This document shows positions 2,481 to 61,857 of a stretch of 64,000 nucleotides of DNA, in pieces. Source of the DNA: Nemertoderma westbladi (lineage: Eukaryota > Animalia > Xenacoelomorpha); the NCBI GenBank assembly GCA_032718475.1, contig JAUCBJ010001142.1, positions 1 to 64,000 on the forward strand, in the 5' to 3' direction. The position numbers and the translations under genes were made by a program. Each line of letters begins with the position of its first letter. Position 1 is the first letter of the stretch. The notes below the pieces were generated by a model, which worked only from the letters and a program-made list of their open reading frames with translations, was not told the DNA's origin and searched no databases.

Positions 2481-2492
2481 TATATCCTTTAA
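2481..2492 (-). promoter_or_regulatory. Non-tRNA primer-binding site of copy B (TTAAAGGATATA), complementary to LTR site 3218-3229
   Basis: + strand 2481-2492 TATATCCTTTAA is the exact reverse complement of 3218-3229 TTAAAGGATATA. It abuts the LTR end and has no TGG. Confidence 0.75.
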
Positions 2493-3670
2493 TGTTCGCG
2501 CTTTCAGACCTTTGGCAGTTTAACCCGCCAAATTAAGATGTCTTCTAGATATTAAATCGCTTTTTAGCCTATGACAAGTATTTGATTCACTACACTAGTC
2601 GAAACCAATCTGTGCGCGATCATTCACCCGCTGGATATTCCCGGGAGATTGGGTTCGACGGTTTAATTTTATTGCTATGTAAGCCTAATGTATTATTCGA
2701 CTGACAGTATTATATAATCTCTGACAATATTATTCACCTTCGGGAATATTAACAGTTCCTTTAGGACGTGGCGCTTTATTTATATAAACAGAGTTATGAC
2801 TTAAACTACTCACAACGATATGGCTTAATTATAATTCACATATATGGCGCATTCTTTAGGAAATGCTTCTTTAACAGACTCACTCGTACACAATGCTGCA
2901 CAATACTGCACACTAATCTGCCAATCTTCACTGATTTTAGTCACATATAAAAGGAACACAGACTGACTCATGTAGGGTCTATCAAATAACATTAGATTCA
3001 CTTCAAACCACTTTAACATAAGTCACAATCGTTATTGGTAACCTTTCTCTCTTACCTTCGGTATATCAAGAATATTGGGTTTCGGGGTTATTTCTCGTTA
3101 TTCCAATATAATAATTCATCAACAAATATAATGAATAACCGACAACAAATAGCAGTATACAGTATTGATTGAGCAGGTAATTTTTAGCAGTGAGATATTC
3201 AAGTGATTAAAAGCCAGTTAAAGGATATATGTCCTTATAATTAAACCTACTAGTGTTGAGCTAAAAAGCAGAAAGCACAAAACACTAAAAAGCCGTTCTT
3301 TCGTGGCTTTATAAAACTCGTGACTACTACTCTATACGAGGATACCAACTACCCTTATTCCACGAAGCTCCCGTTCAACACAGAGAAAGAGCAGTGAGAT
3401 AGGAAAATTTCAGTTCAGTAGCTCTGTGATAGGTCAAAATCAAGGCTAACTCAAATTCTATTGGGAGATACAAAAACAAGGCTTATGACGCAACCTCCCT
3501 AGGCTGGTTGGCCGATTAAACAGAGCCCAGATACCTGCGTACAGCAAATCAGCCAATAAGCTGGTAGCTTGCACTATTTTTAGCTATAGATCCCTTTAGA
3601 GTATTCTAGCGACCGGGGGGGAACTGGCCAACAAGGCAAACGAATCAGTTATCCCACAAAAGCTTTTACA
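2493..3670 (-). repeat. 5' LTR of BEL/Pao copy B (~1178 bp)
   Basis: TG...CA termini shared with copy A LTRs. The R/U5 part (2493-~3170) is highly similar to 40550-41223; the U3 part is largely non-alignable. Confidence 0.88.
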
Positions 3671-30400: not shown

Positions 30401-33400
30401 CACTAGCCAGTGAGATGCGTAGCAGTAGGGTTAGGAATTAGTCACACTAGCCTGTGAGGTGCGTAGCAGTAGGGTTAGGAATTAGTCACACTAGCCTGTG
30501 AGGTGCGTAGCAGTAGGGTTAGGAATTAGTCTCACTAGCCTGTGAGGTGCGTAGCAGTAGGGTTAGGAATTAGTCAAACTAGCCTGTGAGGTGCGTAGCA
30601 GTTGGGTTAGGAATTAGTCACACTAGCCTGTGAGGTGCGTAGCAGTAGGGTTAGGAATTAGTCTCACTAGCCTGGGAGGTGCGCAGCAGTAGGGTTAGGA
30701 ATTAGTCAAACTAGCCTGTGAGGTGCGTAGCAGTTGGGTTAGGAATTAGTCACACTAGCCTGTGAGGTGCGTAGCAGTAGGGTTAGGAATTAGTCACACT
30801 AGCCTGTGAGGTGCGTAGCAGTAGGGTTAGGAATTAGTCTCACTAGCCTGTGAGGTGCGTAGCAGTAGGGTTAGGAATTAGTCACATTAGCCTGGGAGGT
30901 GCGTAGCAGTAGGGTTAGGAATTAGTCAAACTAGCCTGTGAGGTGCGTAGCAGTAGGGTTAGGAATTAATCACACTAGCCTGGGAGGTGTGTAGCAGTAG
31001 GGTTAGGAATTAGTCACACTAGCCTGGGAGGTGCGTAGCAGTAGGGTTAGGAATTAGTCAAACTAGCCTGTGAGGTGCGTAGCAGTAGGGTTAGGAATTA
31101 ATCACACTAGCCTGGGAGGTGTGTAGCAGTAGGGTTAGGAATTAGTCACACTAGCCAGTGAGATGCGTAGCAGTAGGGTTAGGAATTAGTCACACTAGCC
31201 TGTGAGGTGCGTAGCAGTAGGGTTAGGAATTAGTCACACTAGCCTGTGAGGTGCGTAGCAGTAGGGTTAGGAATTAGTCTCACTAGCCTGTGAGGTGCGT
31301 AGCAGTAGGGTTAGGAATTAGTCACATTAGCCTGGGAGGTGCGTAGCAGTAGGGTTAGGAATTAATCACACTAGCCTGGGAGGTGCGTAGCAGTAGGGTT
31401 AGGAATTAGTCACTCTAGCCTAGGAGGTGCGTAGCAGTAGGGTTAGGAATTAGTCACTCTAGCCTGTGAGGTGCGTAGCAGTAGGGTTAGGAATTAGTCA
31501 CACTAGCCTGTGAGGTGCGTAGCAGTAGGGTTAGGAACTAGTCACACTAGCCAGTGAGATGCGTAGCAGTAGGGTTAGGAATTAGTTACACTAGCCTGTG
31601 AGGTGCGTAGCAGTAGGGTTAGGAATTAGTCACACTAGCCTGTGAGGTGCGTAGCAGTAGGGTTAGGAATTAGTCAAACTAGCCTGTGAGGTGCGTAGCA
31701 GTAGGGTTAGGAATTAATCACACTAGCCTGGGAGGTGTGTAGCAGTAGGGTTAGGAATTAGTCACACTAGCCAGTGAGATGCGTAGCAGTAGGGTTAGGA
31801 ATTAGTCACACTAGCCTGTGAGGTGCGTAGCAGTAGGGTTAGGAATTAGTCACACTAGCCAGTGAGATGCGTAGCAGTAGGGTTAGGAATTAATCACACT
31901 AGCCTGGGAGGTGCATAGTAGGTGGGTTAGGAATTAGTCAAACTAGCCTGTGAGGTGCGTAGCAGTAGGGTTAGGAATTAATCACACTAGCCTGGGAGGT
32001 GCATAGTAGGTGGGTTAGGAACTAGTCACACTAGCCAGTGAGATGCGTAGCAGTAGGGTTGGGAATTAGTTACACTAGCCTGTGAGGTGCGTAGCAGTAG
32101 GGTTAGGAATTAGTCACACTAGCCTGTGAGGTGCGTAGCAGTAGGGTTAGGAATTAGTCACATTAGCCTGTGAGGTGCGTAGCAGTAGGGTTAGGAATTA
32201 GTCACACTAGCCTGTGAGGTGCGTAGCAGTAGGGTTAGGAACTAGTCACACTAGCCAGTGAGATGCGTAGCAGTAGGGTTAGGAATTAGTTACACTAGCC
32301 TGTGAGGTGCGTAGCAGTAGGGTTAGGAATTAGTCACACTAGCCTGTGAGGTGCGTAGCAGTAGGGTTAGGAATTAGTCAAACTAGCCTGTGAGGTGCGT
32401 AGCAGTAGGGTTAGGAATTAATCACACTAGCCTGGGAGGTGTGTAGCAGTAGGGTTAGGAATTAGTCACACTAGCCAGTGAGATGCGTAGCAGTAGGGTT
32501 AGGAATTAGTCACACTAGCCTGTGAGGTGCGTAGCAGTAGGGTTAGGAATTAGTCACACTAGCCAGTGAGATGCGTAGCAGTAGGGTTAGGAATTAATCA
32601 CACTAGCCTGGGAGGTGCATAGTAGGTGGGTTAGGAATTAGTCAAACTAGCCTGTGAGGTGCGTAGCAGTAGGGTTAGGAATTAATCACACTAGCCTGGG
32701 AGGTGCATAGTAGGTGGGTTAGGAATTAGTCAAACTAGCCTGTGAGGTGCGTAGCAGTAGGGTTAGGAATTAATGACACTAGCCTGGGAGGTGCATAGTA
32801 GGTGGGTTAGGAATTAGTCAAACTAGCCTGTGAGGTGAGTAGCAGTAGGGTTAGGAATTAATCACACTAGCCTGTGAGGTGCGTAGCAGTAGGATTAGGA
32901 ATTAGTCACACTAGCCTGTGAGGTGCGTAGCAGTAGGGTTAGGAATTAGTCACACTAGCCTGTGAGGTGCGTAGCAGTTGGGTTAGGAAATAGTCACACT
33001 AGTCTGGGAGGTGCGTAGCAGTTTGGTTAGGAATTAGTCAAACTAGCCTGTGAGGTGCGTAGCAGTAGGGTTAGGAATTAATCACACTAGCCTGGGAGGT
33101 GCATAGTAGGTGGGTTAGGAATTAGTCAAACTAGCCTGTGAGGTGCGTAGCAGTAGGGTTAGGAATTAATCACACTAGCCTGGGAGGTGTGTAGCAGTAG
33201 GGTTAGGAATTAGTCACACTAGCCAGTGAGATGCGTAGCAGTAGGGTTAGGAATTAGTCACACTAGCCTGTGAGGTGCGTAGCAGTAGGGTTAGGAATTA
33301 ATCACACTAGCCTGTGAGGTGCATAGAAGGTGGGTTATAACCCACCTTCTATGCACCTCACAGGCTAGTTTGATTAATTCCTATAGGAATTAATCAAACT

Positions 33401-36400
33401 AGCCTGTGAGGTGCATAGAAGGTGGGTTAGGAATTAGTCAAACTAGCCTGTGAGGTGCGTAGCAGTAGGGTTAGGAATTAATCACACTAGCCTGTGAGGT
33501 GCGTAGCAGTAGGGTTAGGAATTAGTCACACTAGCCTGTGAGGTGCGTAGCAGTAGGGTTAGGAATTAGTCACACTAGCCTGTGAGGTGCGTAGCAGTAG
33601 GGTTAGGAATTAGTCTCACTAGCCTGTGAGGTGCGTAGCAGTAGGGTTAGGAATTAATCACACTAGCCTGTGAGGTGCGTAGCAGTAGGGTTAGGAATTA
33701 GTCACACTAGCCTGTGAGGTGCGTAGCAGTAGGGTTAGGAATTAGTCACACTAGCCTGTGAGGTGCGTAGCAGTAGGGTTAGTAATTAATCACACTAGCC
33801 TGGGAGGTGCATAGTAGGTGGGTTAGGAATTAGTCAAACTAGCCTGTGAGGTGCGTAGCAGTAGGGTTAGGAATTAGTCACATTAGCCTGTGAGGTGCGT
33901 AGCAGTAGGGTTAGGAATTAGTCTCACTAGCCTAGGAGGTGCGTAGCAGTAGGCCTAGGGTTAGGAATTAATAACACTAGCCTGTGAGGTGCATAGAAGG
34001 TGGGTTAGGAATTAGTCAAACTAGCCTGTGAGATGCGTAGCAGTAGGGTTAGGAATTAATCACACTAGCCTGTGAGGTGCGTAGCAGTAGGGTTAGGAAT
34101 TAGTCACACTAGCCTGTGAGGTGCGTAGCAGTAGGGTTAGGAATTAGTCACACTAGCCTGTGAGGTGCGTAGCAGTAGGGTTTGGAATTAGTCTCACTAG
34201 CCTGTGAGGTGCGTAGCAGTAGGGTTAGGAATTAATCACACTAGCCTGTGAGGTGCGTAGCAGTAGGGTTAGGAATTAGTCATACTAGCCTGTGAGGTGC
34301 GTAGCAGTAGGGTTAGGAATTAGTCACACTAGCCTGTGAGGTGCGTAGCAGTAGGGTTAGGAATTAATCACACTAGCCTGGGAGGTGCATAGTAGGTGGG
34401 TTAGGAATTAGTAAAACTAGCCTGTGAGGTGCGTAGCAGTAGGGTTAGGAATTAATCACACTAGCCTGGGAGGTGCATAGTAGGTGGGTTAGGAATTAGT
34501 CAAACTAGCCTGTGAGGTGCGTAGCAGTAGGGTTAGGAATTAATCACACTAGCCTGTGAGGTGCGTAGCAGTTGGGTTAGGAAATAGTCACACTAGTCTG
34601 GGAGGTGCGTAGCAGTTTGGTTAGGAATTAGTCAAACTAGCCTGTGAGGTGCGTAGCAGTAGGGTTAGGAATTAATCACACTAGCCTGGGAGGTGCATAG
34701 TAGGTGGGTTAGGAATTAGTCAAACTAGCCTGTGAGGTGCGTAGCAGTAAGGTTAGGAATTAATCACACTAGCCTGGGAGGTGTGTAGCAGTAGGGTTAG
34801 GAATTAGTCACACTAGCCAGTGAGATGCGTAGCAGTAGGGTTAGGAATTAGTCACACTAGCCTGTGAGGTGCGTAGCAGTAGGGTTAGGAATTAATCACA
34901 CTAGTCTGTGAGGTGCATAGAAGGTGGGTTAGGAATTAATCAAACTAGCCTGTGAGGTGCATAGAAGGTGGGTTAGGAATTAGTCAAACTAGCCTGTGAG
35001 GTGCGTAGCAGTAGGGTTAGGAATTAATCACACTAGCCTGTGAGGTGCGTAGCAGTAGGGTTAGGAATTAGTCACACTAGCCTGTGAGGTGCGTAGCAGT
35101 AGGGTTAGGAATTAGTCACACTAGCCTGTGAGGTGCGTAGCAGTAGGGTTAGGAATTAGTCTCACTAGCCTGTGAGGTGCGTAGCAGTAGGGTTAGGAAT
35201 TAATCACACTAGCCTGTGAGGTGCGTAGCAGTAGGGTTAGGAATTAGTCACACTAGCCTGTGAGGTGCGTAGCAGTAGGGTTAGGAATTAGTCACACTAG
35301 CCTGTGAGGTGCGTAGCAGTAGGGTTAGGAATTAATCACACTAGCCTGGGAGGTGCATAGTAGGTGGGTTAGGAATTAGTCAAACTAGCCTGTGAGGTGC
35401 ATAGCAGTAGGGTTAGGAATTAGTCACATTAGCCTGTGAGGTGCGTAGCAGTAGGGTTAGGAATTAGTCTCACTAGCCTAGGAGGTGCGTAGCAGTAGGC
35501 CTAGGGTTAGGAATTAATCACACTAGCCTGTGAGGTGCATAGAAGGTGGGTTAGGAATTAGTCAAACTAGCCTGTGAGGTGCGTAGCAGTAGGGTTAGGA
35601 ATTAGTCACACTATCCTGTGAGGTGCGTAGCAGTAGGGTTAGGAATTAATCACACTAGCCTGTGAGGTGCGTAGCAGTAGGGTTAGGAATTAGTCACACT
35701 AGCCTGTGAGGTGCGTAGCAGTAGGGTTAGGAATTAATCACACTAGCCTGTGAGGTGCATAGAAGGTGGGTTAGGAATTAGTCTCACTAGCCTGGGAGGT
35801 GCATAGTAGGTGGGTTAGGAATTAGTCAAAATAGCCTGTGAGGTGCGTAGCAGTAGGGTTAGGAATTAATCACATTAGCCTGTGAGGTGCGTAGCAGTTG
35901 GGTTAGGAATTAATCACACTAGCCTGTGAGGTGCATAGAAGGTGGGTTTAGTCAAACTAGCCTGTGAGGTGCGTAGCAGTAGGGTTAGGAATTAATCACA
36001 CTAGCCTGTGAGGTGCGTAGCAGTAGGGTTAGGAATTAGTCTCACTAGCCTGGGAGGTGCATAGTAGGTGGGTTAGGAATTAGTCAAACTAGCCTGTGAG
36101 GTGCGTAGCAGTAGGGTTAGGAATTAATCACACTAGCCTGTGAGGTGCGTAGCAGTAGGGTTAGGAATTAATCACACTAGCCTGTGAGGTGCATAGAAGG
36201 TGGGTTAGGAATTTGTCAAACTAGCCTGTGAGGTGCGTAGCAGTAGGGTTAGGAATTAGTCACACTAGCCTGTGAGGTGCGTAGCAGTAGGGTTAGGAAT
36301 TAATCACACTAGCCTGTGAGGTGCGTAGCAGTAGGGTTAGGAATTAGTCAAACTAGCCTGTGAGGTGCGTAGCAGTAGGGTTAGGAATTAATCACACTAG

Positions 36401-39400
36401 CCTGTGAGGTGCGTAGCAGTAGGGTTATGAATTAATCACACTAGCCTGTGAGGTGCGTAGCAGTAGGGTTAGGAATTAGTCACACTAGCCTGTGAGGTGC
36501 GTAGCAGTAGGGTTAGGAATTAGTCACACTAGCCTGTGAGGTGCGTAGCAGTAGGGTTAGGAATTAGTCTCACTAGCCTGGGAGGTGGGTAGCAGTAGGG
36601 TTAGGAATAAGACACACTAGCCTGTGAGGTGCGTAGCAGTAGTGTTAGGAATTAGTCACATTAGCCTGGGAGGTGCGTAGCAGTAGGGTTAGGAATTAAT
36701 CACACTAGCCTGTGAGGTGCGTAGCAGTAGTGTTAGGAATTAGTCACATTAGCCTGGGAGGTGCGTAGCAGTAGGGTTAGGAATTAGTCACACTAGCCTG
36801 TGAGGTGCATAGCAGTAGGGTTAGGAATTAGTCTCACTAGCCAGTGAGATGCGTAGCAGTAGGGTTAGGAATTAATCACACTAGCCTGTGAGGTGCGTAG
36901 CAGTAGGGTTAGTAATTAATCACACTAGCCTGTGAGGTGCATAGAAGGTGGGTTTAGTCAAACTAGCCTGTGAGGTGCGTAGCAGTAGGGTTAGGAATTA
37001 ATCACACTAGCCTGTGAGGTGCGTAGCAGTAGGGTTAGGAATTAGTCTCACTAGCCTGGGAGGTGCATAGTAGGTGGGTTAGGAATTAGTCAAACTAGCC
37101 TGTGAGGTGCGTAGCAGTAGGGTTAGGAATTAATCACACTAGCCTGTGAGGTGCGTAGCAGTAGGGTTAGTAATTAATCACACTAGCCTGTGAGGTGCAT
37201 AGAAGGTGGGTTAGGAATTAGTCAAACTAGCCTGTGAGGTGCGTAGCAGTAGGGTTAGGAATTAGTCAAACTAGCCTGGGAGGTGGGTAGCAGTAGGGTT
37301 AGGAATTAGACACACTAGCCTGTGAGGTGCGTAGCAGTAGTGTTAGGAATTAGTCACATTAGCCTGGGAGGTGCGTAGCAGTAGGGTTAGGAATTAGTCA
37401 CACTAGCCTGTGAGGTGCGTAGCAGTAGGGTTAGGAATTAGTCTCACTAGCCAGTGAGATGCATAGCAGTAGGGTTAGTAATTAATCACACTAGCCTGTG
37501 AGGTGCATAGAAGGTGGGTTAGGAATTAGTCAAACTAGCCTGTGAGGTGCGTAGCAGTAGGGTTAGGAATTAGTCACACTAGCCTGTGAGGTGCGTAGCA
37601 GTAGGGTTAGGAATTAATCACACTAGCCTGTGAGGTGCATAGAAGGTGGGTTAGGAATTAGTCAAACTAGCCTGTGAGGTGCGTAGCAGTAGGGTTAGGA
37701 ATTAATCACACTAGCCTGTGAGGTGCGTAGCAGTAGGGTTAGGAATTAGTCAAACTAGCCTGTGAGGTGCGTAGCAGTAGGGTTAGGAATTAGTCACACT
37801 AGCCTGTGAGGTGCGTAGCAGTAGGGTTAGGAATTACTCACATTAGCCTGTGAGGTGCGTAGCAGTAGGGTTAGGAATTAGTCACACTAGCCTGGGAGGT
37901 GCGTAGCAGTAGGGTTAGCAATTAGTCACACTAGCCTGTGAGGTGCGTAGCAGTAGGGTTAGGAATTACTCACATTAGCCTGTGAGGTGCGTAGCAGTAG
38001 GGTTAGGAATTAGTCACACTAGCCAGTGAGATGCGTAGCAGTAGGGTTAGGAATTACTCACATTAGCCTGTGAGGTGCGTAGCAGTAGGGTTAGGAATTA
38101 GTCACACTAGCCTGGGAGGTGCGTAGCAGTTGGGTTAGGAATTAGTCACACTAGCCTGTGAGGTGCGTAGCAGTAGGGTTAGGAATTACTCACATTAGCC
38201 TGTGAGGTGCGTAGCAGTAGGGTTAGGAATTAGTCACACTAGCCTGGGAGGTGCGTAGCAGTTGGGTTAGGAATTAGTCTCACTAGCCTGGGAGGTGCGT
38301 AGCAGTAGGGTTAGGAATTAGTCACATTAGCCTGTGAGGTGCGTAGCAGTTGGGTTAGGAATTAGTCACACTAGCCTGTGAGGTGAGTAGCAGTAGTGTT
38401 AGGAATTAGTCACATTAGCCTGGGAGGTGCGTAGCAGTAGGGTTAGGAATTAATCACACTAGCCTGTGAGGTGCATAGAAGGTGGGTTACGAATTAGTCT
38501 CACTAGCTTGTGAGGTGGGTAGCAGTAGGGTTAGGAATTAGTCACATTAGCCTGTGAGGTGCGTAGCAGTTGGGTTAGGAATTAGTCACACTAGCCTGTG
38601 AGGTGCGTAGCAGTAGGGTTAGGAATTAGTCACATTAGCCTGTGAGGTGCGTAGCAGTAGGGTTAGCAATTAGTCACACTAGCCTGGGAGGTGCGTAGCA
38701 GTAGGGTTAACAATTAGTCACACTAGCCTGTGAGGTGCGTAGCAGTAGGGTTAGGAATTACTCACATTAGCCTGTGAGGTGCGTAGCAGTTGGGTTAGGA
38801 ATTACTCACATTAGCCTGTGAGGTGCGTAGCAGTAGGGTTAGTAATTAATCACACTAGCCTGTGAGGTGCGTAGCAGTAGGGTTAGGAATTACTCACATT
38901 AGCCTGTGAGGTGCGTAGCAGTTGGGTTAGGAATTAGTCACACTAGGCTAGGAGGTGCGTAGCAGTAGGGTTAGGAATTAGTCACATTAGCCTGTGAGGT
39001 GCGTAGCAGTTGGGTTAGGAATTAGTCACACTAGCCTGTGAGGTGCGTAGCAGTAGGGTTAGCAATTAGTCACACTAGCCTGGGAGGTGCGTAGCAGTAG
39101 GGTTAACAATTAGTCACACTAGCCTGTGAGGTGCGTAGCAGTAGGGTTAGGAATTACTCACATTAGCCTGTGAGGTGCGTAGCAGTTGGGTTAGGAATTA
39201 CTCACATTAGCCTGTGAGGTGCGTAGCAGTTGGGTTAGGAATTACTCACATTAGCCTGTGAGGTGCGTAGCAGTAGGGTTAGGAATTAGTCACACTAGCC
39301 TGTGAGGTGCGTAGCAGTAGGGTTAGGAATTACTCACATTAGCCTGTGAGGTGCGTAGCAGTTGGGTTAGGAATTACTCACATTAGCCTGTGAGGTGCGT

Positions 39401-39980
39401 AGCAGTTGGGTTAGAAATTACTCACATTAGCCTGTGAGGTGCGTAGCAGTTGGGTTAGGAATTACTCACATTAGCCTGTGAGGTGCGTAGCAGTTGGGTT
39501 AGGAATTACTCACATTAGCCTGTGAGGTGCGTAGCAGTAGGGTTAGGAATTAGTCACACTAGCCTGGGAGGTGCGTAGCAGTAGGGTTAGGAATTAGTCT
39601 CACTAGCCTGGGAGGTGCGTAGCAGTAGGGTTAGGAATTAGTCTCACTAGCCTGGGAGGTGCGTAGCAGTAGGGTTAGGAATTAGTCACATTAGCCTGGG
39701 AGGTGCGTAGCAGTAGGGTTAGGAATTAGTCTCACTAGCCTGGGAGGTGCGTAGCAGTAGGGTTAGGAATTAGTCACATTAGCCTGGGAGGTGCGTAGCA
39801 GTAGGGTTAGGAATTAGTCACACTAGCCTGGGAGGTGCGTAGCAGTAGGGTTAGGAATTAGTCACATTAGCCTGGGGGGTGCGTAGCAGTAGGGTTAGGA
39901 ATTACTCACATTAGCCTGTGAGGTGCGTAGCAGTAGGGTTAGGAATTAGTCACACTAGCCTGGGAGGTGCGTAGGAGTAG
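21483..39980 (+). repeat. 44-bp satellite, left block (~420 monomers)
   Basis: Consensus AGGTGCGTAGCAGTAGGGTTAGGAATTAGTCACACTAGCCTGTG, head-to-tail, period 44. Confidence 0.99.
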
Positions 39981-41223
39981 TGTAAAAGCTTTTGCTGAAT
40001 TGTCCGGTTATTTTTCCTTATTTTTCCCGTAAAATACTCTGTAGTTGGTTTACCAGGCATAAAAAGGCCGTGTCCTTGCTGTACTGGTGTTTTAGCGGAC
40101 ATAAAAGCTATTTCTTCTGTATTTGTACTTTAGAGGACATAATCCGTAATTCCGTGACGTAAAAGCTCGATACTCTTGAAAACAGTGTCGCTACCATGAC
40201 GACGGCTAGCAGCTGATATTGCCACGTCGACGTTTCTTTGTTTCTTTGTTCTCTCGTTGTTCAGGTTGACCAATCAGAGCGTTTGTTGTCTCTGTGTTGG
40301 AGGTGTATACAGAAACTCAGTAGTTCAGTGTTATGTTTTGCCCAGAGTCTAAGAACCGGCTTTTGGCACCTCCGTGTTTTCAGTTTTTAGTCCTACACTA
40401 GTAGGCTTAATTATAAGGACATATATCCGTTATCTGTATACTGCAAACGTAACTGATGTCTGATGTCTGATGTTTGATGTCTGCATACTGCATACTGCAT
40501 ACTGCAGTACTGCATACACTGCATACTGTGTAACACTGTGCATACTTTATATTGTTATACTGCTATTTACTGTCGGTTCTTCATAATACGGTTGATGAAT
40601 TATTATATTTGGAATAACGACAAATAACCCCGAAAACCCAATATTCTTGATATACCGAAGGTAAGAGAGAAGGGTTACAGATAAATGATTGCGACCTATG
40701 TTGAGTGGTTTGAAGTGAATCTAATGTTATTTGATAGACCCTACATGATTCGGTCCGTGTTCCTTTTATATATAACTAAAATCAGTGAAGATCGGCAGAT
40801 CAGTGTGCAGTATTGTGCAGCATTGTGTATGAGTGAGACTGATAACGAAGCATTTCCTAAAGAATGCGCCATATATGTGAATTATAACTAAGCCATATCA
40901 TTGTGAGTAGTTTAAGTCATAACTCTGTTTATATAGATAGAGCGCCACGTCCTAAAGGAACTGTTAATATTTCCCGAAGGTGAATAATATTGTCAGAGAT
41001 TATATAATACTGTCAGTCGAATAATACATTAGGCTTACATAGCAATAAGATTAAGCCGTCGAACCCAATCTCCCGGGTATATCCAGCGGGTGAATGATCG
41101 CGCACAGATTGGTTTCGACTAGTGTAGTGAATTAAATACTTGTCATAGACTAAAGGTGATTTATTATCTAGAAGACATCCTAATTTGGCGGGTTAAACTG
41201 CCAAAGGTCTGAAAGCGCGAACA
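39981..41223 (+). repeat. 5' LTR, copy A
   Basis: TGTAAAAGC...GCGCGAACA; about 4 substitutions versus the 3' LTR by eye. Confidence 0.97.
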
Positions 41224-41236
41224 ATAACGGATATAT
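41224..41236 (+). promoter_or_regulatory. Non-tRNA primer-binding site of copy A (ATAACGGATATAT), complementary to LTR site 40421-40433
   Basis: Exact 13-nt reverse complement of ATATATCCGTTAT (40421-40433, also 51481-51493). Begins at the first base after the LTR and has no TGG. Confidence 0.78.
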
Positions 41237-43029
41237 CTTCTTTATTGCAGTAAGCAATAAAGTTGAAAGTACCGGTCAACCGGTAAACCTGAAAGGTACA
41301 TCTGTAGGTCCGTAGGCCTAACTGTCCTAACCGGTACTTCCCGTATAAGTACATTAGTATTATTCGATTTTGATAGTTATACACCGGTAGGCCTTAATAA
41401 TTAATCAGGGACTGCAGCCCTGGTTTTTTATTGAGATTTTTACTTATTTCTGTCAAGTTTTATTTATTTGTAGGCCAGTATTGAACAGAAGGCGTGTAAG
41501 CCTGATCATATTGTACAGACGATTTGTAGGCTGAGCTGTTGTCTGATTGCTGTTAAGTCCGAACGAATTGCAGTGTGTGTAGATCACCTGTCCGATTAAG
41601 TACGATTAGGCAGTAGGGGCAGCGAATGCTGTAAGGTAAACCCCCAATTAAAGAATAAGTCGTACTACTGGGTTAGAACGCATACTCCCTAATCATTTCG
41701 GAGTCTGCATGTCCTGCGGTTTATTTAGGCTTGAGAGTAGTCTGCCATCGTTTAGTCTGTACTTTGTTTGTGTAAGTCTGTACGGGTAGCGTATAATTTT
41801 ATTTAGATAATTTGTAGGCTGGATAGTTGTCTGGCTGTTATTAGGTCTGAACGGATTGCAGCGTGTGTAGATCATCTGTCCGATTAAGTACGGTTAGGAA
41901 GTAGGGGCAGCCAATGCGGTAAGGTAAACCCCCAATTAAAGAATAAGTCGCACTACTGGGTTAGAGCGCATACTCCCTAATCATTTCGGAGTCTGCATAT
42001 ACCGTAGTTTGTTTAGGCTTGATAGTAGTCTGTCAGTATTTGGTCTGCATTTTGTTTGAGTAGTTTGTACGCGTAGCGTAATATTTATTATTCAGAGTTT
42101 ATGCGATTATTCGCAACATTCATTCCCCAAGTTTGTTCCTACAGTAATTGTGTTTGTTATACATACCGCTATAGTTAAATTAACCCCGGTACTACACGCT
42201 ACACGGGCTGCTTGGCGTAGGTAAAGACTGGTGATTTTGTGCATCGGTCACTCCAGCAGATGCCGTGGTTCTTTTAGCTGTTCAAGTATATTTAACTACT
42301 GATTATCTGTTGTACAAGTACTCGTACCTAATTTAGGGTTTAGTGTACAGTGCTTTCCGAGAGTAATTAGTGTAGGCATTATATTTGTGTTGTAAAGTGG
42401 TTGATAGGCACATTCGATTAGCTCTATTAACTTCTAGGTAGGAACACTCCGTGATACATAACGTAGAACCTATAGCGATACGGTTATAGGTCGTCAGGCG
42501 GTGGTATTTTTCCTATCTGGACAACGCAGTGTATTTACTACCGCGTATTATTTTCAAATACCGCAGTACCCTGTCCGTTGTAATAACCAGATTTCTAACT
42601 CTTTGTTAGGCTGGTTGTAGACTTCTTGTAAAATTACCCTAAAAATTCGTATTTTGTGTTTTTTGTAAATTTTTGTGTTTATTTAGAGATTGTAATCTCA
42701 ACCCGAATCGTACGTAATTTGTAGTATTAAGTAACTTAGGTAAATTAGTATTATTTGTTTTAGTGTCCTATAAGTAACACTTCACTGAAAGCGCACCGCT
42801 TTGTGTAGTGATTACTCCCCAGAAATAATAACATTTATTTCAACATTGACTAAACCCATTAAAACGGGTATATATATATTATAAATCAAATCTAAAGATT
42901 TATAAATAGTAGGCCAACCATACAACCATTAGGTCTCCATATCAGTTGGTCTACTGCTCAAATAGCGGTAATAAAGTAAGTAAAGTAACCAAGTAACCCT
43001 AAAATTCAGAAATTCAATTATTTAAAATA

Positions 43030-43450
43030 ATTGATATACCGGTATTTACGATAGGCCTATTATCTTTATTTCTATAAATTTCGGCTGAAATTATACCGGT
43101 ACTTGTAATTAATTCTAGTTTGTAATTATACTTATATATATACACTATAAGTGTAAACTGCATACCGGTATTTACGATAGGCCTATTATCTTTATTTCTA
43201 TAAATTTAGGCTGAAATTATACCGGTACTTGTAATTAATTCTAGTCCAGAATTATATATACTACAAACTGTAAGCTGTATACCGGTATTCCGATAGGCCT
43301 ATTATATATTTATATATATTTGTGCTAAAATTATACCGGTATTCTGTGATAAACCTAGTCTGTAATAATAGTTATATATACTATAAGCATACCACCGGTA
43401 TTCTAATATATTATATATATCACACTACACTGAGTAGCAGTACCGGTAAT
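43030..43450. repeat. Imperfect repeats built on TACCGGTA/TAGGCCTA motifs just upstream of gag
   Basis: TACCGGTATTTACGATAGGCCTATTAT at ~43037 and 43163, similar at ~43280; fewer copies in copy B (320-615). Confidence 0.8.
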
Positions 43451-43535
43451 TAATTACTAGGCTAGCAGTTAATACTGAATTACTAGACTTGCTTTAGCTG
43501 TATTTATAGCCGTAGGCATTCAACTGTAAACAAAC

Positions 43536-46500
43536 ATGTCTGACACAACCCAATCACTGTCAGATAGTCTCCTAGATAGTGTTAGAATGACTGTTAGACA
43601 GTGTCTTAAAAAGATCAGTGACCCAGATCCAAGTATAGAACATCCTAGATCCAAGTCTAAGTCCCCTCCTACTGTGCGAAAAATCATCCCTCAAGTAGTA
43701 GTATCAGACCCTAGGCTAGTCCAACATCGTAGGTCTATCATAGGCACTCGAGCTCAGGTCAAGCGGGACCAAGAAGCAGCGGAACCTCAACAACCCGCGA
43801 GCCAAGAACCTAGTTCTCAGCGGCCCGAGAGATCCAGTAGTTCGGATACTGTTGAGCGGACGCCCGAACGCGGAGCGAAGATGGCGGATACGGTTTATGA
43901 TGAACGGCCAACCTATGAAGAATCAACCGACGCCACTTCTTCTCAAGAAGAAAGCGAAGGGACAGCGGAGGGGCCGCGAAAGAGAGATGCCATTGACATC
44001 TATCTGTCAGACTATCAACGCTTTGTGGGAGATGAAGAGTTGAGGAGAAGGCTGGAGGGGCTTAGCCCTAATAGTGAAGGAACCAAGCTTGTGCTGGATG
44101 CAATCGATGCGGAAATGTTAGCGGCGAACCAAGCTAAATTCGATGAACAACTCCGCATCGCTAGAGAAAAGGAAGAACAAGTAAGGAAAAAACGTATAGA
44201 AGATAGAAAGACAGCAGCAGCGGCAGTGGCAGCGGCAGAAGCGGAAAGAAAGGCAGCAGAGGCGGCGGCAGAAAAGACAGTGGCAGCGGCAGAAGCGGAA
44301 AGGAAAGTGGCAGCAGCAGAAGCGGAAAGGAAAGCGGCAGCGGCAGAAGCGGAAAGAAAGATAGCAGTGGCAGAAGCAGAACGGAGGGCATCTGAAGAGA
44401 CAACCCAACTAGAGTTGGAAAATCTTCAAGAGAGGCAAGAAAACTTTAATAAACAGTTAACAGCTAGTAATATGCAGATGATGAATCGATCTACTCCCAA
44501 ACGGCAAGGTTATACATCATCTGAGGAAGGCGATACCACTGACGCTGAAGGCGGAGGAAATCGATCCCGCCTAAGCAGACGTAAAAGAACATTCCACCGT
44601 CAGAAATTGCCTGATTTGCCTCCAGCTGTTAGAAGGCAACTAAATAACACCAACTTAGAGAGTACAGAACCCACAGACCAAATAATTACAATAGAAAGAC
44701 TCCCTACTATAGTAGATGAGCCTGAAATAAGTAGGCCTGTTCTTGAAATCACCCCTTCGGTAATAGATACACCTGTGCTCCCTGAAGCTACCTATAAATT
44801 CCCTCTGCATAGCACTAAGCTACCTGTGCCCCGTAGAACTGCCCAGGAGACAGTTCAGGTCCTGGACCCCGAGCGAAATATTCCAAATTTGTCGCCCGTT
44901 GTCCCTCGTCTGCCCGCTACGACGTTGGCGGATCCCGTTTCGGCGGTTGATTGGGTAGACGAGAGACGGCGGGGGATGGATATTCTCCTAGGAGAGATGA
45001 AGGAGAATCGGATACGCTCTTCCCAACAGGTCCGAGAGTTGGAAGGGACTGTCCAACATTTAAAAGGAACAGTGAGGGAAAGTAAGTTAGAGTTGCAAGA
45101 AGTGCAGCAAAGTATCGCGGTAGAACGCGATAAATTAGTAAACTTAAAAAAGGGTATACCACCACCCTCTGTAACAATGTGTCAACCCGTTAGGTCTGAA
45201 GTATCTCATGCGCAAGGTGTGGAGCCTACACGCATCTATACTGCTAGCGAAGTAGAAACTCCTATAGTGAACCCTATTAAGGGTAATTATAGACCTGTTG
45301 ATAATGATATTCCCTATAGACCGGATCATAATCCGAGAAATTTATATACCGATAACTCGATATTAAATAACACGATGGCCCAAGAAAGTTTTACGCGTCA
45401 AATGGCTAGAACCGAAGCCCGGCAAGCGGTAAAGGTGGGAGAGATCGTCAAGTTCAATGGAGATGAGATGAAATGGTTACCTTTTAATGAATATTACAAA
45501 GATAACATACAGAACTCTGTACTATCTAATGGAGAAAAACTTAGATACCTCATCGAGTGCTTGGAAGGATCTCCCAAGTTAATGGCGTTAAAGTTTATTG
45601 GACATCCAGACGGATTAAGACAAGTTTGGGATACACTAAACATCAGGTATGGTAATAGGAATAATATCGCTGGGTACTTGTATGCAAAGTTAGTAGCGCC
45701 CCGAAAGTTTATTAGTAGCGGAATTATCGAGTTTTCCGATGAGATCCAGGAGATCTGCAGACAATTAGATTGGCTAGGTAAGTCTCATGAATACCAGAAT
45801 TATATGGTTGTAGGAGCCTTAGCATCTACTTTGCCCAAGGGTGGAGTAGGTACACGCTGGGACAAGAAGGTGTTATATATGATGGAACAACAACAACGAG
45901 ACCCTACCATGGCTGATCTCATGTCATTCTTAGATGGAGAAGTGAAATTACAGCTCCTAAGACAGTCCAGAGAGAAGACACTGGAAAACAGGGTAAGTGA
46001 GAAACCCGTTTCTAGGAGAAGGGTAACACCAGTATGTTATACCGACGACGGTGAAAGCCAAACTTCTCAAGGAGAGGACAGCGGGAAAGACACTGACAGA
46101 TCTTATTATGTCAATAAATTGCCTAAAGATCAGGTAAGTAAATCCGAGTCTCGACCCAATGACAGAAGGGAACCGGTACAAAAAACCCTTTCTACATCTC
46201 CTAAAAGAATTCAGGTGAGAAAGCCCGAGGAAAGAACAAGTGTGCACCACATAGCACAGGTTAAAGTAAGTAACATCAAGCCGAAATGTGTGCTGTGCGA
46301 CGGGCCCCACCGTTTAAATGCGTGTGATAAATTCCTGAGGAAATCACTAAAGGATAGACGTGAAGTCATGTGGGATAAGCGGTTGTGTTATAATTGCCTC
46401 AGACGAGGACACCAACGGCGAACCTGTAACTCCGACGCAAGGTGTGCAAAGTGCGGCGCAAAACATCATATCTTGTTGCACACGGAATTCGAACGAAACA

Positions 46501-48026
46501 GCCCGAGTCAGGTAAGTGAGTCCGAACTACATGTCCAATTCAGTGATGTGAACGACACTGATCAATCTGAGATGGAAGGATTCTATACGGACGAGTTCTC
46601 CGACCAAAACGAATCCTGTTACCTAATAAACACCACCGCAGTGTATCGAGCACTCGTACATGAGAAAGACACAGACAGCGACCTTACCTTAACTACTTCC
46701 GATCAACAACCATCTTGGAAAGCGCCAACTTCCAATATAGGAATCCGAGAATTTCCTGTAGTCCAGTTACGGGTCCACGGACCTCAGAAGAGCTATATAG
46801 TGAACGCCCTCCTGGACTCCGGTAGCACAGGAACATTCATCGATAAAGAACTAGCCGAAGTCATCTTTGCTGGACAATCCAAGTTCCGAACCAAGCTAAA
46901 CATGTCAGGGATCATGCAGGTTTGGAATTCTACTGTAGCTGCCGACTATTATATAGGTGAGTTGTCCACTCCACAGGATAAACTAGGAGAATACAGTATA
47001 AGGTCAGTCAAAATGGTGGCAATAAAGAACTTCGCTACCACCCAAGTGGAACCTTATAATTGGGACGAAGATGATCATGTCCAACAACTTAACATCCCTA
47101 GATTCGACACCGATTATCCTGGAGTACAAATATTAATCGGTCAAAACGCGCATGAGGCGCTTGAGACATTGGAGAAACGACCTACTCAACCGCAACCACT
47201 TCAGACCTATGCGGTAAGAACTAGAGTAGGTTGGTACCTTACTGGACCTTCCCGTAGAACGCTCAGGGAAAGACTGCTTCAAGATCGCGTCTGCCAGGTG
47301 AGTGAATGGGAAGACGATACTAGTGAGGGAGACGACCCAACTGAGGGAACACCACACTCCTCAGATAAGGACAATCTTAACTCCAATGTAGATCAATGGA
47401 GATATTGCCCCAAGACGATGAATATAGCCGACATCGCTTCCAGAGGAGCAACTCCTCAAGAACTGACAGATACTACAGACCGGTTAGGTGAACCCGACTT
47501 CCTGAGTAAGGAGGATGAATGGCCTCCCCATCTTACTCCGACTGAGATTAGACCAGCCAAGGGAGCGGAGAAAGTTAAACCTAAAACCCGGACGGGTGGA
47601 GCGGAGTTATTTGAACCCGGGATAGATCTGTCGGTATTACATATTGCCAGGGACGACGCCGTGGATCTGGACCTCCCCACTGCGAGTGGATCCTTCATGA
47701 AGATCAGAGAGAGCGATTGGAGCTCTGGAACATCAGACGTCTCGCAGGAACTCTCACCTCTCCTGCAGAGAGCGACGGACCACTATAGCTCCTGGAATCG
47801 GCTTTGTGACGCCGTCATATACTTTGAGCGATGTTTCTATCGTCACTATTCCAGGACGAAGAGGAAACCTGGAATTGTATTCAGGATGCAGCGACTCAAT
47901 CACCCAGTCGGTCGTTTGTGTTTATCGGAAGGGAATGGAGGACTCTCCGGAAACTGTGGAAGGCAAGATTCTCTTCCCACGACCACCTCCCTAATCCTTC
48001 AAACATCTAGGGACTCCATAACGTAG
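43536..48026 (+). CDS. BEL/Pao Gag-protease polyprotein (1496 aa) fused in frame to the RNase H C-terminal remnant; RT and integrase absent
   Basis: AEAERK coiled repeats; DUF1759-like KFNGDEMKW..LSNGEKLRYL; triple knuckle CVLC..H..C / CYNC..H..C / CAKC..HH.LLH; protease ALLDSGSTGTFI; ILIG..AVRTRVGW; then directly QWRYCPKTMNIADIASRG..PDFL..EWP and YSSWNRL. No YVDD or DDE motifs. Confidence 0.92.
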   Translation: MSDTTQSLSDSLLDSVRMTVRQCLKKISDPDPSIEHPRSKSKSPPTVRKIIPQVVVSDPRLVQHRRSIIGTRAQVKRDQEAAEPQQPASQEPSSQRPERSSSSDTVERTPERGAKMADTVYDERPTYEESTDATSSQEESEGTAEGPRKRDAIDIYLSDYQRFVGDEELRRRLEGLSPNSEGTKLVLDAIDAEMLAANQAKFDEQLRIAREKEEQVRKKRIEDRKTAAAAVAAAEAERKAAEAAAEKTVAAAEAERKVAAAEAERKAAAAEAERKIAVAEAERRASEETTQLELENLQERQENFNKQLTASNMQMMNRSTPKRQGYTSSEEGDTTDAEGGGNRSRLSRRKRTFHRQKLPDLPPAVRRQLNNTNLESTEPTDQIITIERLPTIVDEPEISRPVLEITPSVIDTPVLPEATYKFPLHSTKLPVPRRTAQETVQVLDPERNIPNLSPVVPRLPATTLADPVSAVDWVDERRRGMDILLGEMKENRIRSSQQVRELEGTVQHLKGTVRESKLELQEVQQSIAVERDKLVNLKKGIPPPSVTMCQPVRSEVSHAQGVEPTRIYTASEVETPIVNPIKGNYRPVDNDIPYRPDHNPRNLYTDNSILNNTMAQESFTRQMARTEARQAVKVGEIVKFNGDEMKWLPFNEYYKDNIQNSVLSNGEKLRYLIECLEGSPKLMALKFIGHPDGLRQVWDTLNIRYGNRNNIAGYLYAKLVAPRKFISSGIIEFSDEIQEICRQLDWLGKSHEYQNYMVVGALASTLPKGGVGTRWDKKVLYMMEQQQRDPTMADLMSFLDGEVKLQLLRQSREKTLENRVSEKPVSRRRVTPVCYTDDGESQTSQGEDSGKDTDRSYYVNKLPKDQVSKSESRPNDRREPVQKTLSTSPKRIQVRKPEERTSVHHIAQVKVSNIKPKCVLCDGPHRLNACDKFLRKSLKDRREVMWDKRLCYNCLRRGHQRRTCNSDARCAKCGAKHHILLHTEFERNSPSQVSESELHVQFSDVNDTDQSEMEGFYTDEFSDQNESCYLINTTAVYRALVHEKDTDSDLTLTTSDQQPSWKAPTSNIGIREFPVVQLRVHGPQKSYIVNALLDSGSTGTFIDKELAEVIFAGQSKFRTKLNMSGIMQVWNSTVAADYYIGELSTPQDKLGEYSIRSVKMVAIKNFATTQVEPYNWDEDDHVQQLNIPRFDTDYPGVQILIGQNAHEALETLEKRPTQPQPLQTYAVRTRVGWYLTGPSRRTLRERLLQDRVCQVSEWEDDTSEGDDPTEGTPHSSDKDNLNSNVDQWRYCPKTMNIADIASRGATPQELTDTTDRLGEPDFLSKEDEWPPHLTPTEIRPAKGAEKVKPKTRTGGAELFEPGIDLSVLHIARDDAVDLDLPTASGSFMKIRESDWSSGTSDVSQELSPLLQRATDHYSSWNRLCDAVIYFERCFYRHYSRTKRKPGIVFRMQRLNHPVGRLCLSEGNGGLSGNCGRQDSLPTTTSLILQTSRDSIT

Positions 48027-48574
48027 CAACATATGGAGTGGGTGTGTGACTCTATTATTTTATATTATTTTATTATTTTTATATTTCTGTATGTATTACT
48101 ATGTAATTTTATTATAATCGTTTTCTTTAATTTTATTCAGTAGAATGTTATTTTAGCGATTATTTAGTAGATTAGTGCAATATATATTCGCGTTTATTAC
48201 TTAATTACGTATATATTATATTTAATGCGACGGCAAGAAATAATTATTTTCTCTTTCCTTACTGTCCGTATCATATTATAAATACGTGACTACAGTAAGA
48301 TGAAATGTCCATACTTATTAAAGTACAATAAAGCCACTACTATATTTAAGTATTATTGGTAGGCAGAGTATTAGGAATGCAAAGTTCAGATCCTCGTGTC
48401 TCGGCTAAACCAAGCTCTGGGTAGACCTTGGAAACGACTTGCCTCTTCACACTGACATTGCTTCGTGCGATATTGCTCTCATACCGTATATTAAATAATA
48501 CATATAGTAGCGTGATGTCCCTTTAACAGTAGCGTATAACGCAAAATAAATCTGTTAAACCCTTTGACCATCTG

Positions 48575-48870
48575 TAATTCTAGTCGATTAAGATATCGCG
48601 GCACCCACCGATATACTTGAAAGACAAATTCTAGAATCAGTGGTTAACGTCCCCAGACAAGTTCTGGAATAAATCGGTGCCCATCTCAAATATTAATTAT
48701 TTAATATTTGCAAATCTAATAAATCAAAATTTGTAAAATTCAGATCCTTCAACAATTCTAGTCAATTAAGATATCGTAGCATTTACCGATATTCTTAAAA
48801 AAGACAATTGTCATAGAATTAAGGATCTTGTGTCCCTAGACATGTTCTAGAATCAAAATATGTCCATTTA
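48575..48870. repeat. Diverged ~178-bp duplication in the element's 3' region
   Basis: TTCTAGTC(G/A)ATTAAGATATCG...ACCGATAT...AAAGACAA at ~48578 and ~48756. Confidence 0.7.
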
Positions 48871-51040
48871 ATTATCAAATAATAAAATTTCAGGGAATAA
48901 ATTTAAATTCATGCCTTTTAATGAATTTAATAAATTGCCATTGTTACGCAATTTATAAAGTTCCCAAAATTCCATTAATTAATAGGTCAAGGGAGCGGAG
49001 ATTTATCTTATCATGCGTATGAGTGTGTGAAAGTCTCCCAAACATAGTCAATAGCCGATAAAATTCATAAAGTCATGTATAAAACAGAACATTGACTATT
49101 AAAGAATACTATTAAATAACATCCCAGATCTGTATGTATTGGAACTACCCTAATTCTACCGCTAGCTTTGCATAATGTCACCATAGCAACAATCACGCTA
49201 GAATTAGAATTGAGTTAAAAGAACAATAGAAAGCTTGTCCCATTGAATAGCATAGGGAATAAATAGCGCACTACTAGTATCCAAGGATACATAATAATAC
49301 AGTGACATTCTGGAAGGCATTGACTAACGGACAAATGGCCCGAATGTGCGTAGTTGTGACCAGTTGTGTGGTATTTGTGAGTTTATAGGTGAATGTTACT
49401 GCTAAAGTGTGTTTACAGTAGCTAGTCGCAATCGTAAAAGTAACCTAACTCTCCAAGGAAAACCTGAAGTACATCTAAGCCTTTGGGACGGACAGTTGAG
49501 TGACTTGTGCCGGTTGTCGTTGTCATTGTGCGGCTACGTCGTTGGCGAAAGTACAGCGGCGACGACACATCGGCGCTGAGGATCTCGTACTGTCCGGGGG
49601 TTGATTGGGGTAGGCAGCGACGCCCGCTCGCCTAAATATAAACTCATTATAATATGGATAAACTCATATATAGCAGATATGACGGAGTTGATAGAAGATG
49701 GTCTTGGTATCGGGGAGCGATATACTCTACTTTTACAAGCGTTTGTTGATAGCTTAATACGCGGCGACGTTCGTCCAACTGCTGCGGAGGACGATGGTCG
49801 TTATATCGAACCGCCAATGTCCCAAGAGCAGCTCGCGCGAGTTGGACTATAGAAAATTCGCTGCTCGATATACGCGGCGTAATGGTACGTATATGGGCTT
49901 CTTAACTACTGGTCATCCTATCGATTTACACAATACAGACTATGTCGACTATATATCCTGCCCAGCGGAGTCGGAACCATAAACTGAAATTCGAATGCGA
50001 AAATTCTATTCGAAATCGACTCGAAAGAAAAGACACTAAAGAAACAAATGGACGCGGTAACTCCAACGTATATTTGGAATTCTTGATAGAAGCATTGTAA
50101 CAACAGATAAATATCACCCGCGTTTACCCTACCAGACGTGCGTCTTTGGTATTATTACGATAAATGCCCTAGACCCAACTAATAAACGGAAAGACATAAA
50201 CATCCACGTAAACCAAAACTTGTTGACGTATCACCTATGCTCACTCGGCTCGAACGATCCTGGAGTAAACCTACGATCAGAGGCCCGGAATACTCGGTAA
50301 AACCTCCTCATTCCTTAGTTGGACCTCAGACCTGCGATCCTGGTGGTGTCGCGGATCCTCGCGGACTGTATTCACTGTTCAAAGATCTAGTGCTACCCTA
50401 ACAATTAATCGGTAACACTCCGACAGTGATTTCTAGCTAGCCGCCCATCTTACCTAGCCGGATTGTGACGTGGACACCTAATATCACTATCCAACCGTAT
50501 GGTCGTCCCCGTTTAACGCGATACAACCCCTCATCAAGGTGAAGGAGAGCGTTGTACGAAACGAGTTAAACGCTATTCTATAAAGATCAAAAAAGAAACC
50601 TGCGTTTGTTCAGATAAACGTAAGTTATAACAGTAAGTCCAATCGATAAACGAATTGGCCTTATCTCAATTCGATTGGGAAATCCAGAATCTCTAAGAAG
50701 TTATCGAACTTGGACGATCCTATTCTCTGCGAGAGTTTTTGGATGAACGTATCCAGCTACGAGCGGAGGAAAATCAGCTCGAGGAGAAACATATCGAAAC
50801 GGCAGATACCTCGACCACAATCCTACACCTTCTGATGCAATCATATTGCACCCTTCACCCACGAGTTATGGCCCTCCTAGTAAAGTGGCTCCCCCCAAAG
50901 AGAAAAAGACTCTTGCTAGCCTCAAAAAACTGCGTAAACGCCGTCTGCGTAAGAAAGACTAACTGTTTAGAGTATCTTTATGTTTTAGAAACTGTGATTT
51001 TTATATTTTATAGACTGAAAATCCCATTTTCTGGGAGCGG

Positions 51041-52283
51041 TGTAAAAGCTTTTGCTGAATTGTCCGGTTATTTTTCCTTATTTTTCCCGTAAAATACTCT
51101 GTAGTTGGTTTACCAGGCATAAAAAGGCCGTGTCCTTGCTGTACTGGTGTTTTAGCGGACATAAAAGCTATTTCTTCTGTATTTGTACTTTAGAGGACAT
51201 AATCCGTAATTCCGTGACGTAAAGGCTCGATACTCTTGAAAACAGTGTCGCTACCATGACGACGGCTAGCAGCTGATATTGCCACGTCGACGTTTCTTTG
51301 TTTCTTTGTTCTCTCGTTGTTCAGGTTGACCAATCAGAGCGTTTGTTGTCTCTGTGTTGGAGGTGTATACAGAAACTCAGTAGTTCAGTGTTATGTTTTG
51401 CCCAGAGCCTAAGAACCGGCTTTTGGCACCTCCGTGTTTTCAGTTTTTAGTCCTACACTAGTAGGCTTAATTATAAGGACATATATCCGTTATCTGTATA
51501 CTGCAAACGTAACTGATGTCTGATGTCTGATGTTTGATGTCTGCATACTGCATACTGCATACTGCAGTACTGCATACACTGCATACTGTGTAACACTGTG
51601 CATACTTTATATTGTTATACTGCTATTTACTGTCGGTTCTTCATAATACGGTTGATGAATTATTATATTTGGAATAACGACAAATAACCCCGAAAACCCA
51701 ATATTCTTGATATACCGAAGGTAAGAGAGAAGGGTTACAGATAAATGATTGCGACCTATGTTGAGTGGTTTGAAGTGAATCTAATGTTATTTGATAGACC
51801 CTACATGATTCGGTCCGTGTTCCTTTTATATATAACTAAAATCAGTGAAGATCGGCAGATCAGTGAGCAGTATTGTGCAGCATTGTGTATGAGTGAGACT
51901 GATAACGAAGCATTTCCTAAAGAATGCGCCATATATGTGAATTATAACTAAGCCATATCGTTGTGAGTAGTTTAAGTCATAACTCTGTTTATATAGATAG
52001 AGCGCCACGTCCTAAAGGAACTGTTAATATTTCCCGAAGGTGAATAATATTGTCAGAGATTATATAATACTGTCAGTCGAATAATACATTAGGCTTACAT
52101 AGCAATAAGATTAAGCCGTCGAACCCAATCTCCCGGGTATATCCAGCGGGTGAATGATCGCGCACAGATTGGTTTCGACTAGTGTAGTGAATTAAATACT
52201 TGTCATAGACTAAAGGTGATTTATTATCTAGAAGACATCCTAATTTGGCGGGTTAAACTGCCAAAGGTCTGAAAGCGCGAACA
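51041..52283 (+). repeat. 3' LTR, copy A
   Basis: Near-identical to 39981-41223; preceded by GGGAGCGG and followed by AGTAG. Confidence 0.97.
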
Positions 52284-60952: not shown

Positions 60953-61857
60953 CACCATGTCCCAGAATATAGTGTCGTAATTCAGTGACATGCCCCCCCC
61001 CCCCTCCCCCCTAATTTTTCTACAAATCGTAATGAGATTGCATGAAATTTGAAACAGAGATAGTTTCACCTCCCAACCACTGACTGGGTGAGCCAGAATT
61101 TTTATTTTTGCTTTCAATCTTTAGCTACAAGCGTTTATAAAAGTGTCTCCAGCGATATTACACCAGTTACACCGCAGTTATTCTTCTACCATATAGCTGT
61201 TTGTTGGTACCAATGGAAAGCTGGCCCTGCAAGGATTTCAAATACTGTAACGCAATTTGAATTTCGTTGAAAAATAGCTGAGATATGGGCGTTCAAATGT
61301 TGCATGGTTATGCACCTGCGCGAGGCTATTTTATTCTATTTAATAAATGCATCATAATCTGGAATATTTTGTTTATCCAAATACGTAGCTGGGCAACAAT
61401 GCATTACATCTTTAATCATACTATTACGTAGCTATTCATACATTTAAAAAATGTTCCAGAATATGGTTTATTTATTAATAGAATAAAATAGCCTCGCGTC
61501 GTTGCAAAACCATGCAACATTTGAACGCCTCATATCTCAGCTATTTTTCAACGAAATTCAAATTGTGTTACATATTTGGAATCCTTGCAGGGCCAGCTTT
61601 CCATTGGTACCAACAAACAGCTATAAGGTAGAAGAATAACTGCGGTGTAACTGGTGTAATATCGCTGGAGACACTTTTTTTAAACGCTTGTAGCTAAAGA
61701 TTGAAAGCAAAAATAAAAATTCTGGCTCACCCAGTCAGTGGTCGGGAGGTGAAACTATCTCTGTTTCAAATTTCATGCAATCTCATTAAGATTTGTAGAA
61801 AAATTAGGGGGGAGGGGGGGGTACCTGAATAACGACACTATATTCTGGGACATGGTG
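60953..61857. mobile_element. 905-bp foldback MITE with ~400-bp inverted arms and TA TSD (Tc1/mariner-type)
   Basis: TA|CACCATGTCCCAGAATATAGTGTCG ... CGACACTATATTCTGGGACATGGTG|TA. Arms stay complementary to ~61370/61450 with a short spacer. Confidence 0.9.

Follow-up and report, generated by a model that had tools for sequence, protein, structure and literature searches.

A primer-binding site that covaries with its own LTR suggests self-priming in a BEL/Pao retrotransposon family of Nemertoderma westbladi

In Tf1 reverse transcription is primed by the first 11 nt of the element's RNA, released when RNase H cuts between bases 11 and 12 (PMC7175516, in excerpt), and priming needs a three-duplex "pretzel" structure (bioRxiv 2022.12.06.519325, in excerpt). 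Tf1 and Tf2 of S. pombe, Tj1, Tosmo and the Tf1/sushi group have in common with the family described here an LTR-adjacent primer-binding site (PBS), an LTR complement on the 11-nt scale and no tRNA (PMC7175516 and PMC4600332, in excerpt). Self-priming has been predicted from a complement of at least 10 bp starting 0-5 nt past the LTR, and by that same criterion the Tcn1 clade and the Copia TAR lineage (Houba, Osr-1) are included; these are Gypsy or Copia elements from plants and fungi, and the available parts of the source make no mention of a primer made at a splice junction (PMC6317226). The fungal GalEa Copia elements likewise have no tRNA PBS and carry a conserved hairpin at the PBS position, but in the available sections of the report no LTR complement was found by its authors, whereas the family studied here has a covarying one (PMC5445492). 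For BEL/Pao the ICTV profile of the Belpaoviridae gives host tRNA priming from an 18-nt PBS complementary to tRNA-Arg or tRNA-Gly, and calls replication poorly understood (PMC8742986). Self-priming itself is known from Tf1 and, within the literature searched, is most likely new for BEL/Pao; neither it nor a splice-junction primer is described for BEL/Pao in the portions of that literature available, a scope with most subscription journals and Repbase outside it, nor in passages of PMC3601003, PMC5341516, PMC3286476 and PMC8220671, and the terms PBS and tRNA are absent from PMC3118150 and PMC554778.

The window, a stretch of 64,000 nt of N. westbladi DNA, holds two copies, A and B, of one LTR element family (Table 1). 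The earlier note took the family to be BEL/Pao, and this is borne out by its proteins as well as its ends. The copy A ORF matches DUF1759 (E 4e-11), with weak protease and zinc-knuckle matches, PF05380 (the Pao domain) occurs in 15 of 15 homologs of that ORF, and among the top representatives (8 checked of 150) DUF1759 is found in 8/8 and PF05380 in 7/8; the BEL/Pao hallmarks of TG...CA LTRs, a target-site duplication (TSD) and a polypurine tract (PPT) are present in copy A. A Gag with DUF1759, a protease, a Pao RNase H motif, LTRs, a PPT, a 5-bp TSD and an animal host are all common to this family and the Belpaoviridae of the ICTV. Membership of the Tf1/sushi clade was rejected, since Ty3/gypsy chromovirus proteins would be expected there and the element's proteins are those of BEL/Pao, a different superfamily. 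The RT, the integrase and most of the RNase H are missing from copy A, which keeps an RNase H tail only, and so an autonomous relative would supply its enzymes in trans. The leader (2.3 kb) has tandem repeats at 41522-42096, 43137-43360 and 2295-2425, with units of 288, 114 and 38 bp.

Table 1. Features of copies A and B, and distant BEL/Pao loci sorted by the type of match between PBS and LTR
Feature	Position or locus	Strand	Remark
LTR element, copy A	39981-52283	+	both LTRs, TSD, purine tract
5' LTR, copy A, 1243 nt, TG...CA	39981..41223	+	4 differences from 3' LTR
3' LTR, copy A	51041..52283	+	from LTR comparison
5-bp TSD AGTAG	39976..39980, right copy 52284-52288	+	insertion in 44-bp satellite
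Candidate PPT, purine-rich tract abutting 3' LTR	51033..51040	+	
Gag (DUF1759, zinc knuckles)-protease ORF	43530..48026	+	runs into RNase H remnant
C-terminal RNase H remnant in copy A ORF	47382-47555	+	
PBS, copy A	41224..41236	+	no TGG; follows 5' LTR directly
Candidate self-primer, copy A	40421..40433, core 40422-40433	+	second copy 51481-51493 in 3' LTR
Conserved island, 46/52 identical to B	40385..40436	+	between poorly alignable upstream LTR and variable stretch
Strong splice-donor-like site AG/GTAAGA	40661..40666	+	candidate; conserved in B; second at 40980
Possible auxiliary duplex, complementary to leader just past PBS	41033..41049	+	weak
Possible stem, 41094-41110 with LTR end	41094..41221	+	not significant alone; 62 and 55 of 500 shuffles as good
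9-bp hairpin directly after PBS	41240..41262	+	identical in A and B
5' LTR, copy B, 1178 nt	2493..3670	-	element runs off window start
PBS, copy B	2481..2492	-	
Candidate self-primer, copy B	3218..3229	-	
PBS matches only joint of predicted GT-AG LTR intron (76-451 nt)	L032, L054, L058, L060/L096, L061, L082, L083, L086, L092		
Junction-only matches, further loci	L001, L006, L007, L009, L026, L093		
Contiguous self-match 3-9 nt past LTR end	L008, L013, L015, L020, L024, L025, L028, L089		

The 13 nt that follow the 5' LTR of copy A (41224-41236) are, as the earlier note had read them, the exact reverse complement of 40421-40433 inside that LTR, and in copy B 12 nt (2492-2481) are complementary to 3229-3218; in both copies pairing begins at the first base past the terminal CA of the LTR, an end fixed by comparing the two LTRs of A and by the AGTAG duplication. 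PBS positions 1 and 5 differ between A and B and the partner bases in the LTR change in step, a covariation seen within the family in these two copies and with a random expectation of 1/66 x 1/9, or about 0.002, for two partner-matched changes in 12-nt sites. When partners are swapped (the PBS of A with the LTR of B, and the PBS of B with the LTR of A) only 5 nt anchored at position 1 are left, and the flanks of the two sites are 94% (626/664) and 100% (57/57) identical between the copies. Position 13 is T in A and G in B, an uncompensated change, and so the core duplex of the family is 12 bp; with the rare T at 41236 the match of copy A reaches 13 nt, which is what a further templated base would give and is otherwise a 1-in-3 coincidence. 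Chance complementarity in AT-rich DNA is effectively refuted as an account of these matches: the site is indeed AT-rich, and 12-nt contiguous chance matches do occur in wide scans (L002, L003 and L005 among the distant loci), but 13 nt is reached by 2 of 20000 dinucleotide shuffles of the LTR and by a single one of 9777 internal start positions, which is 41224 itself, and the compensatory changes tell against chance as well. The complement is well beyond chance, and stands at the sole position where a primer must sit.

A PBS of the TGG type is absent here, in agreement with the earlier note, the first TGG lying at +198 (A) and +286 (B) after the LTR. The 18-nt complement to a tRNA 3' end that is the BEL/Pao criterion was not found in the window family, and what was found is the PBS complementary to an LTR-internal site that is the criterion of Tf1-type self-primed elements. 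ARAGORN detected no tRNA in the window, and an Rfam search gave two matches, both far below threshold. Reportedly the C. elegans element Cer7 encodes its own tRNA-like primer, which is a different mechanism. That a host tRNA half or some other small RNA does the priming, the LTR complement being secondary, seems very unlikely, even though half-tRNA priming exists in Copia lineages (PMC6317226, in excerpt) and a host tRNA is what the ICTV gives for BEL/Pao (PMC8742986). Against it, Rfam holds nothing near threshold, every related family has its own PBS matching its own LTR, and two PBS alleles with different bases at 2 of the first 5 positions are both common, a state hard to reconcile with a fixed tRNA partner. 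Both alleles are indeed frequent in the contigs of public runs, where the family is abundant (11734 contigs aligned in run X1): in X1 the B allele takes 53% of summed contig depth at 41224 and 51% at 41228, in X3 43% and 56%, and G at 41236 has 99% (X1) and 97% (X3), these shares being taken from the 40 listed of 133 variants, in depth that is not copy number, and with X1 possibly the source of the window itself.

By duplex folding the cognate cores reach -13.3 and -11.6 kcal/mol and the swapped cores -7.3, the cognate pairs being 4-6 kcal/mol more stable. The primer-PBS helix of A has a predicted pair probability of 0.90-1.0 from both starts tried; that of B is mostly at 0.9 or more when folding starts at 3236, and at 0 when it starts at 3260. 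An extended pairing upstream (ATAAGGA, GCTTA), which the earlier note had raised, is predicted by duplex folding too, but it competes with the hairpin that directly follows the PBS. Compared with the Tf1-type pretzel, weak candidate duplexes lie on both sides of the PBS, with shuffle ranks of 16-19 and 55-62 of 500; the segment at 41033 overlaps an AATAAA in B where A has AATAAG, and its duplex is equalled by 16 of 500 shuffles in B, another site scoring best in A. In contrast to the Tf1 primer, which is the RNA 5' end, the candidate primer of the window family would close a predicted loop of about 790 nt. The duplex might have a structural or regulatory role in the leader (packaging, dimerisation, poly(A) or splicing control) with priming done by something else, for which the alternative leader pairings (the hairpin, and 41033-41049 over the AATAAA of B) and the long LTR with its donor-like sites can be cited. 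We hold such a purely regulatory role to be decidedly unlikely, because in A and B the pairing begins exactly where the LTR ends, and in relatives 0-4 nt from there, and because another primer site is not evident given how distant the first TGG is. A primer made at a splice junction was also rejected for the window family, where the match is contiguous and spliced alternatives score 7 and 3.

The downstream LTR parts of A and B are 94% identical and their leaders 92%; the upstream LTR parts (39995-40384 vs 3656-3267) align poorly, which suggests promoter exchange between A and B. The conserved island that follows contains a T-rich acceptor-like tract ending in AG at 40390, for which a trans-splicing reading was considered, then TATAAG at 40412-40417 and then the candidate primer. 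Directly after the candidate primer the sequence from 40437 to 40555 is highly variable, with 7-bp tandem repeats in A and none in B; it is heterogeneous among contigs (agreement 0.63-0.78), as are the contig loose ends just 3' of the primer site. Conservation between A and B stops within 4 nt 3' of the primer site, which matches the predicted cut position and was counted for self-priming. TATAAG, 9-10 nt upstream of the primer site, could on the other hand be a TATA box with a start at about 40440, past the primer site, in which case a self-derived primer would be taken from the copy at 51481-51493 in the 3' LTR, on the same or a second RNA. The hexamer is the same in A and B, a further upstream TATA-like hexamer exists in B only, and covariation would look the same under such a downstream start. 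It is nonetheless an unlikely arrangement, as the start would fall in the most variable sequence, ATAAGGA has an alternative use in pairing with the leader, and the cut would detach the 3' R on which strand transfer depends, unless a second RNA were given up.

Probably the window BEL/Pao family primes its minus strand in the manner of Tf1, from its own LTR RNA and not from a host tRNA. Of the self-priming put forward in the earlier note it is the signature that stands, in the complement, the covariation and 12/16 relatives, together with the absence of a tRNA-like PBS signature. Transcription would start upstream of 40422, the primer site would fold onto the PBS about 790 nt downstream, and a nuclease (the element's RNase H, if Tf1 is a guide) would cut near 40433/40434 to give a free 3' end, which the RT would extend from the terminal CA of the LTR. 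Plus-strand synthesis would recopy the PBS from the primer, and so changes in the LTR would be carried into the PBS. A primer remains attached to the cDNA and serves as template for the PBS, and template ends are prone to error; this would account for the covariation as well as for the variable stretch that follows 40434. Self-priming of this kind makes a sharp prediction: DNA joined to the 3' end of an RNA at 40433. If this is true, BEL/Pao would be the third LTR superfamily with self-priming, annotation filters that look for a tRNA-based PBS would overlook or misread such elements, and tRNA fragments acting in host defence would presumably have no hold on them.

Close relatives of the window family were absent from the viral contigs and metagenome contigs (P0001) scanned. 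A profile of six distant BEL/Pao polyproteins gave 96 loci (80 retained from 518 confirmed, plus 16), in 66 families at 90%. Sixteen contigs in bacterial genome bins carry BEL/Pao elements (L081-L096), and are most likely animal host DNA. For 16 loci, making 15 families, the 5' LTR end was set by eye by comparing both LTRs; L008 joined this set after a contiguous-match scan flagged it, and the LTR of L096 ends in CT. In contrast to the Belpaoviridae as described by the ICTV, TGG at +1 is absent from the window family and from 16/16 of these relatives, two of which have TGG at +2. With strong donors and offsets of 0-3, 9/15 give an 11-13 nt match of the PBS across a predicted GT-AG intron, and 0-1 of 1000 null positions are equally good. 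The rule was widened after inspection to offsets of 0-4, AG/GT donors and matches of at least 10 nt, and by this widened rule the self-match which the earlier note had asked for in related BEL families is found, at 10-13 nt, in 12/16 (0.05 expected), or 11/15 by family. In ten of these 12 the match exists only with a predicted GT-AG intron of the LTR spliced out, and in two it is contiguous, as in the window family; L010, L028, L045 and L088 fail the widened test, each having by eye a partial or offset match. PBS letters differ from family to family, each matching its own LTR, and cross-family matches are few (5/306, four of them between near kin). Matched changes occur in the sister families L082/L083, where they sit at the end of exon 1, and L020/L028. 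The paired PBS starts with GT in most relatives and the window family is without GT near its PBS start, the distance from primer to LTR end is 725-790 nt in the window family as against 44-248 in relatives, and post-PBS auxiliary duplexes were better than shuffles in 0/10 relatives tested.

An exploratory scan without a fixed LTR end gave spliced matches in 10/1806 tests against 2/3261 in the null, of which ten two look spurious and three repeat the L032 family; its contiguous counterpart gave further candidates, with 6/1432 in the null. Several candidates were set aside: the contiguous matches of L002, L003 and L005 lie in coding DNA and were dropped, the spliced matches of L002 (852 nt from the putative end) and L021 (2149 nt) were put down to chance, and so were matches of L047, L019 and L092 and a repeat-driven one of L089. 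Quick trees were made of RT-RNase H (66 rows, the careful search being unfinished) and of Gag-protease (49 rows), and on both the contiguous families sit in three places among spliced ones. The starred branches force at least two (RT-RNase H) and at least three (Gag-protease) changes between contiguous and spliced, with rows lacking a label left out of the count and five of the "spliced" labels given by eye on partial matches. In the Gag-protease tree the window element is a long branch without placement, and so the relatives inform the superfamily and not the window family directly. It is about an even chance that, contrary to the ICTV profile, self-priming is common in much of BEL/Pao, the primer usually coming from an LTR intron spliced by the host, with contiguous families arising by loss or bypass of the intron. 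The window family would do without an intron what, by prediction, most of the BEL/Pao relatives sampled do by way of a splice junction. The junction form, if true, ties reverse transcription to host splicing, and the contiguous families would be its natural comparison.

Elsewhere in the window a 44-bp satellite of about 600 copies, strongly G-skewed, occupies 21483-39980 and 52284-60401, and it is there that copy A is inserted. Two overlapping ORFs at 15852-19575, without a Pfam match and with a 66-bp tandem insert at 17596-17947, resemble what we take to be a CRE/NeSL-like non-LTR retrotransposon. An uninterrupted Kelch-like (KLHL20-type) ORF at 6700-8577 is about 35-44% identical to animal homologs, and a long inverted repeat at 60997-61821 is MITE- or foldback-like. 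A Gag-like zinc-knuckle ORF fragment lies at 9760-10410, and an exon with Ig-domain and transmembrane-like sequence at 14597-15229 (minus strand).
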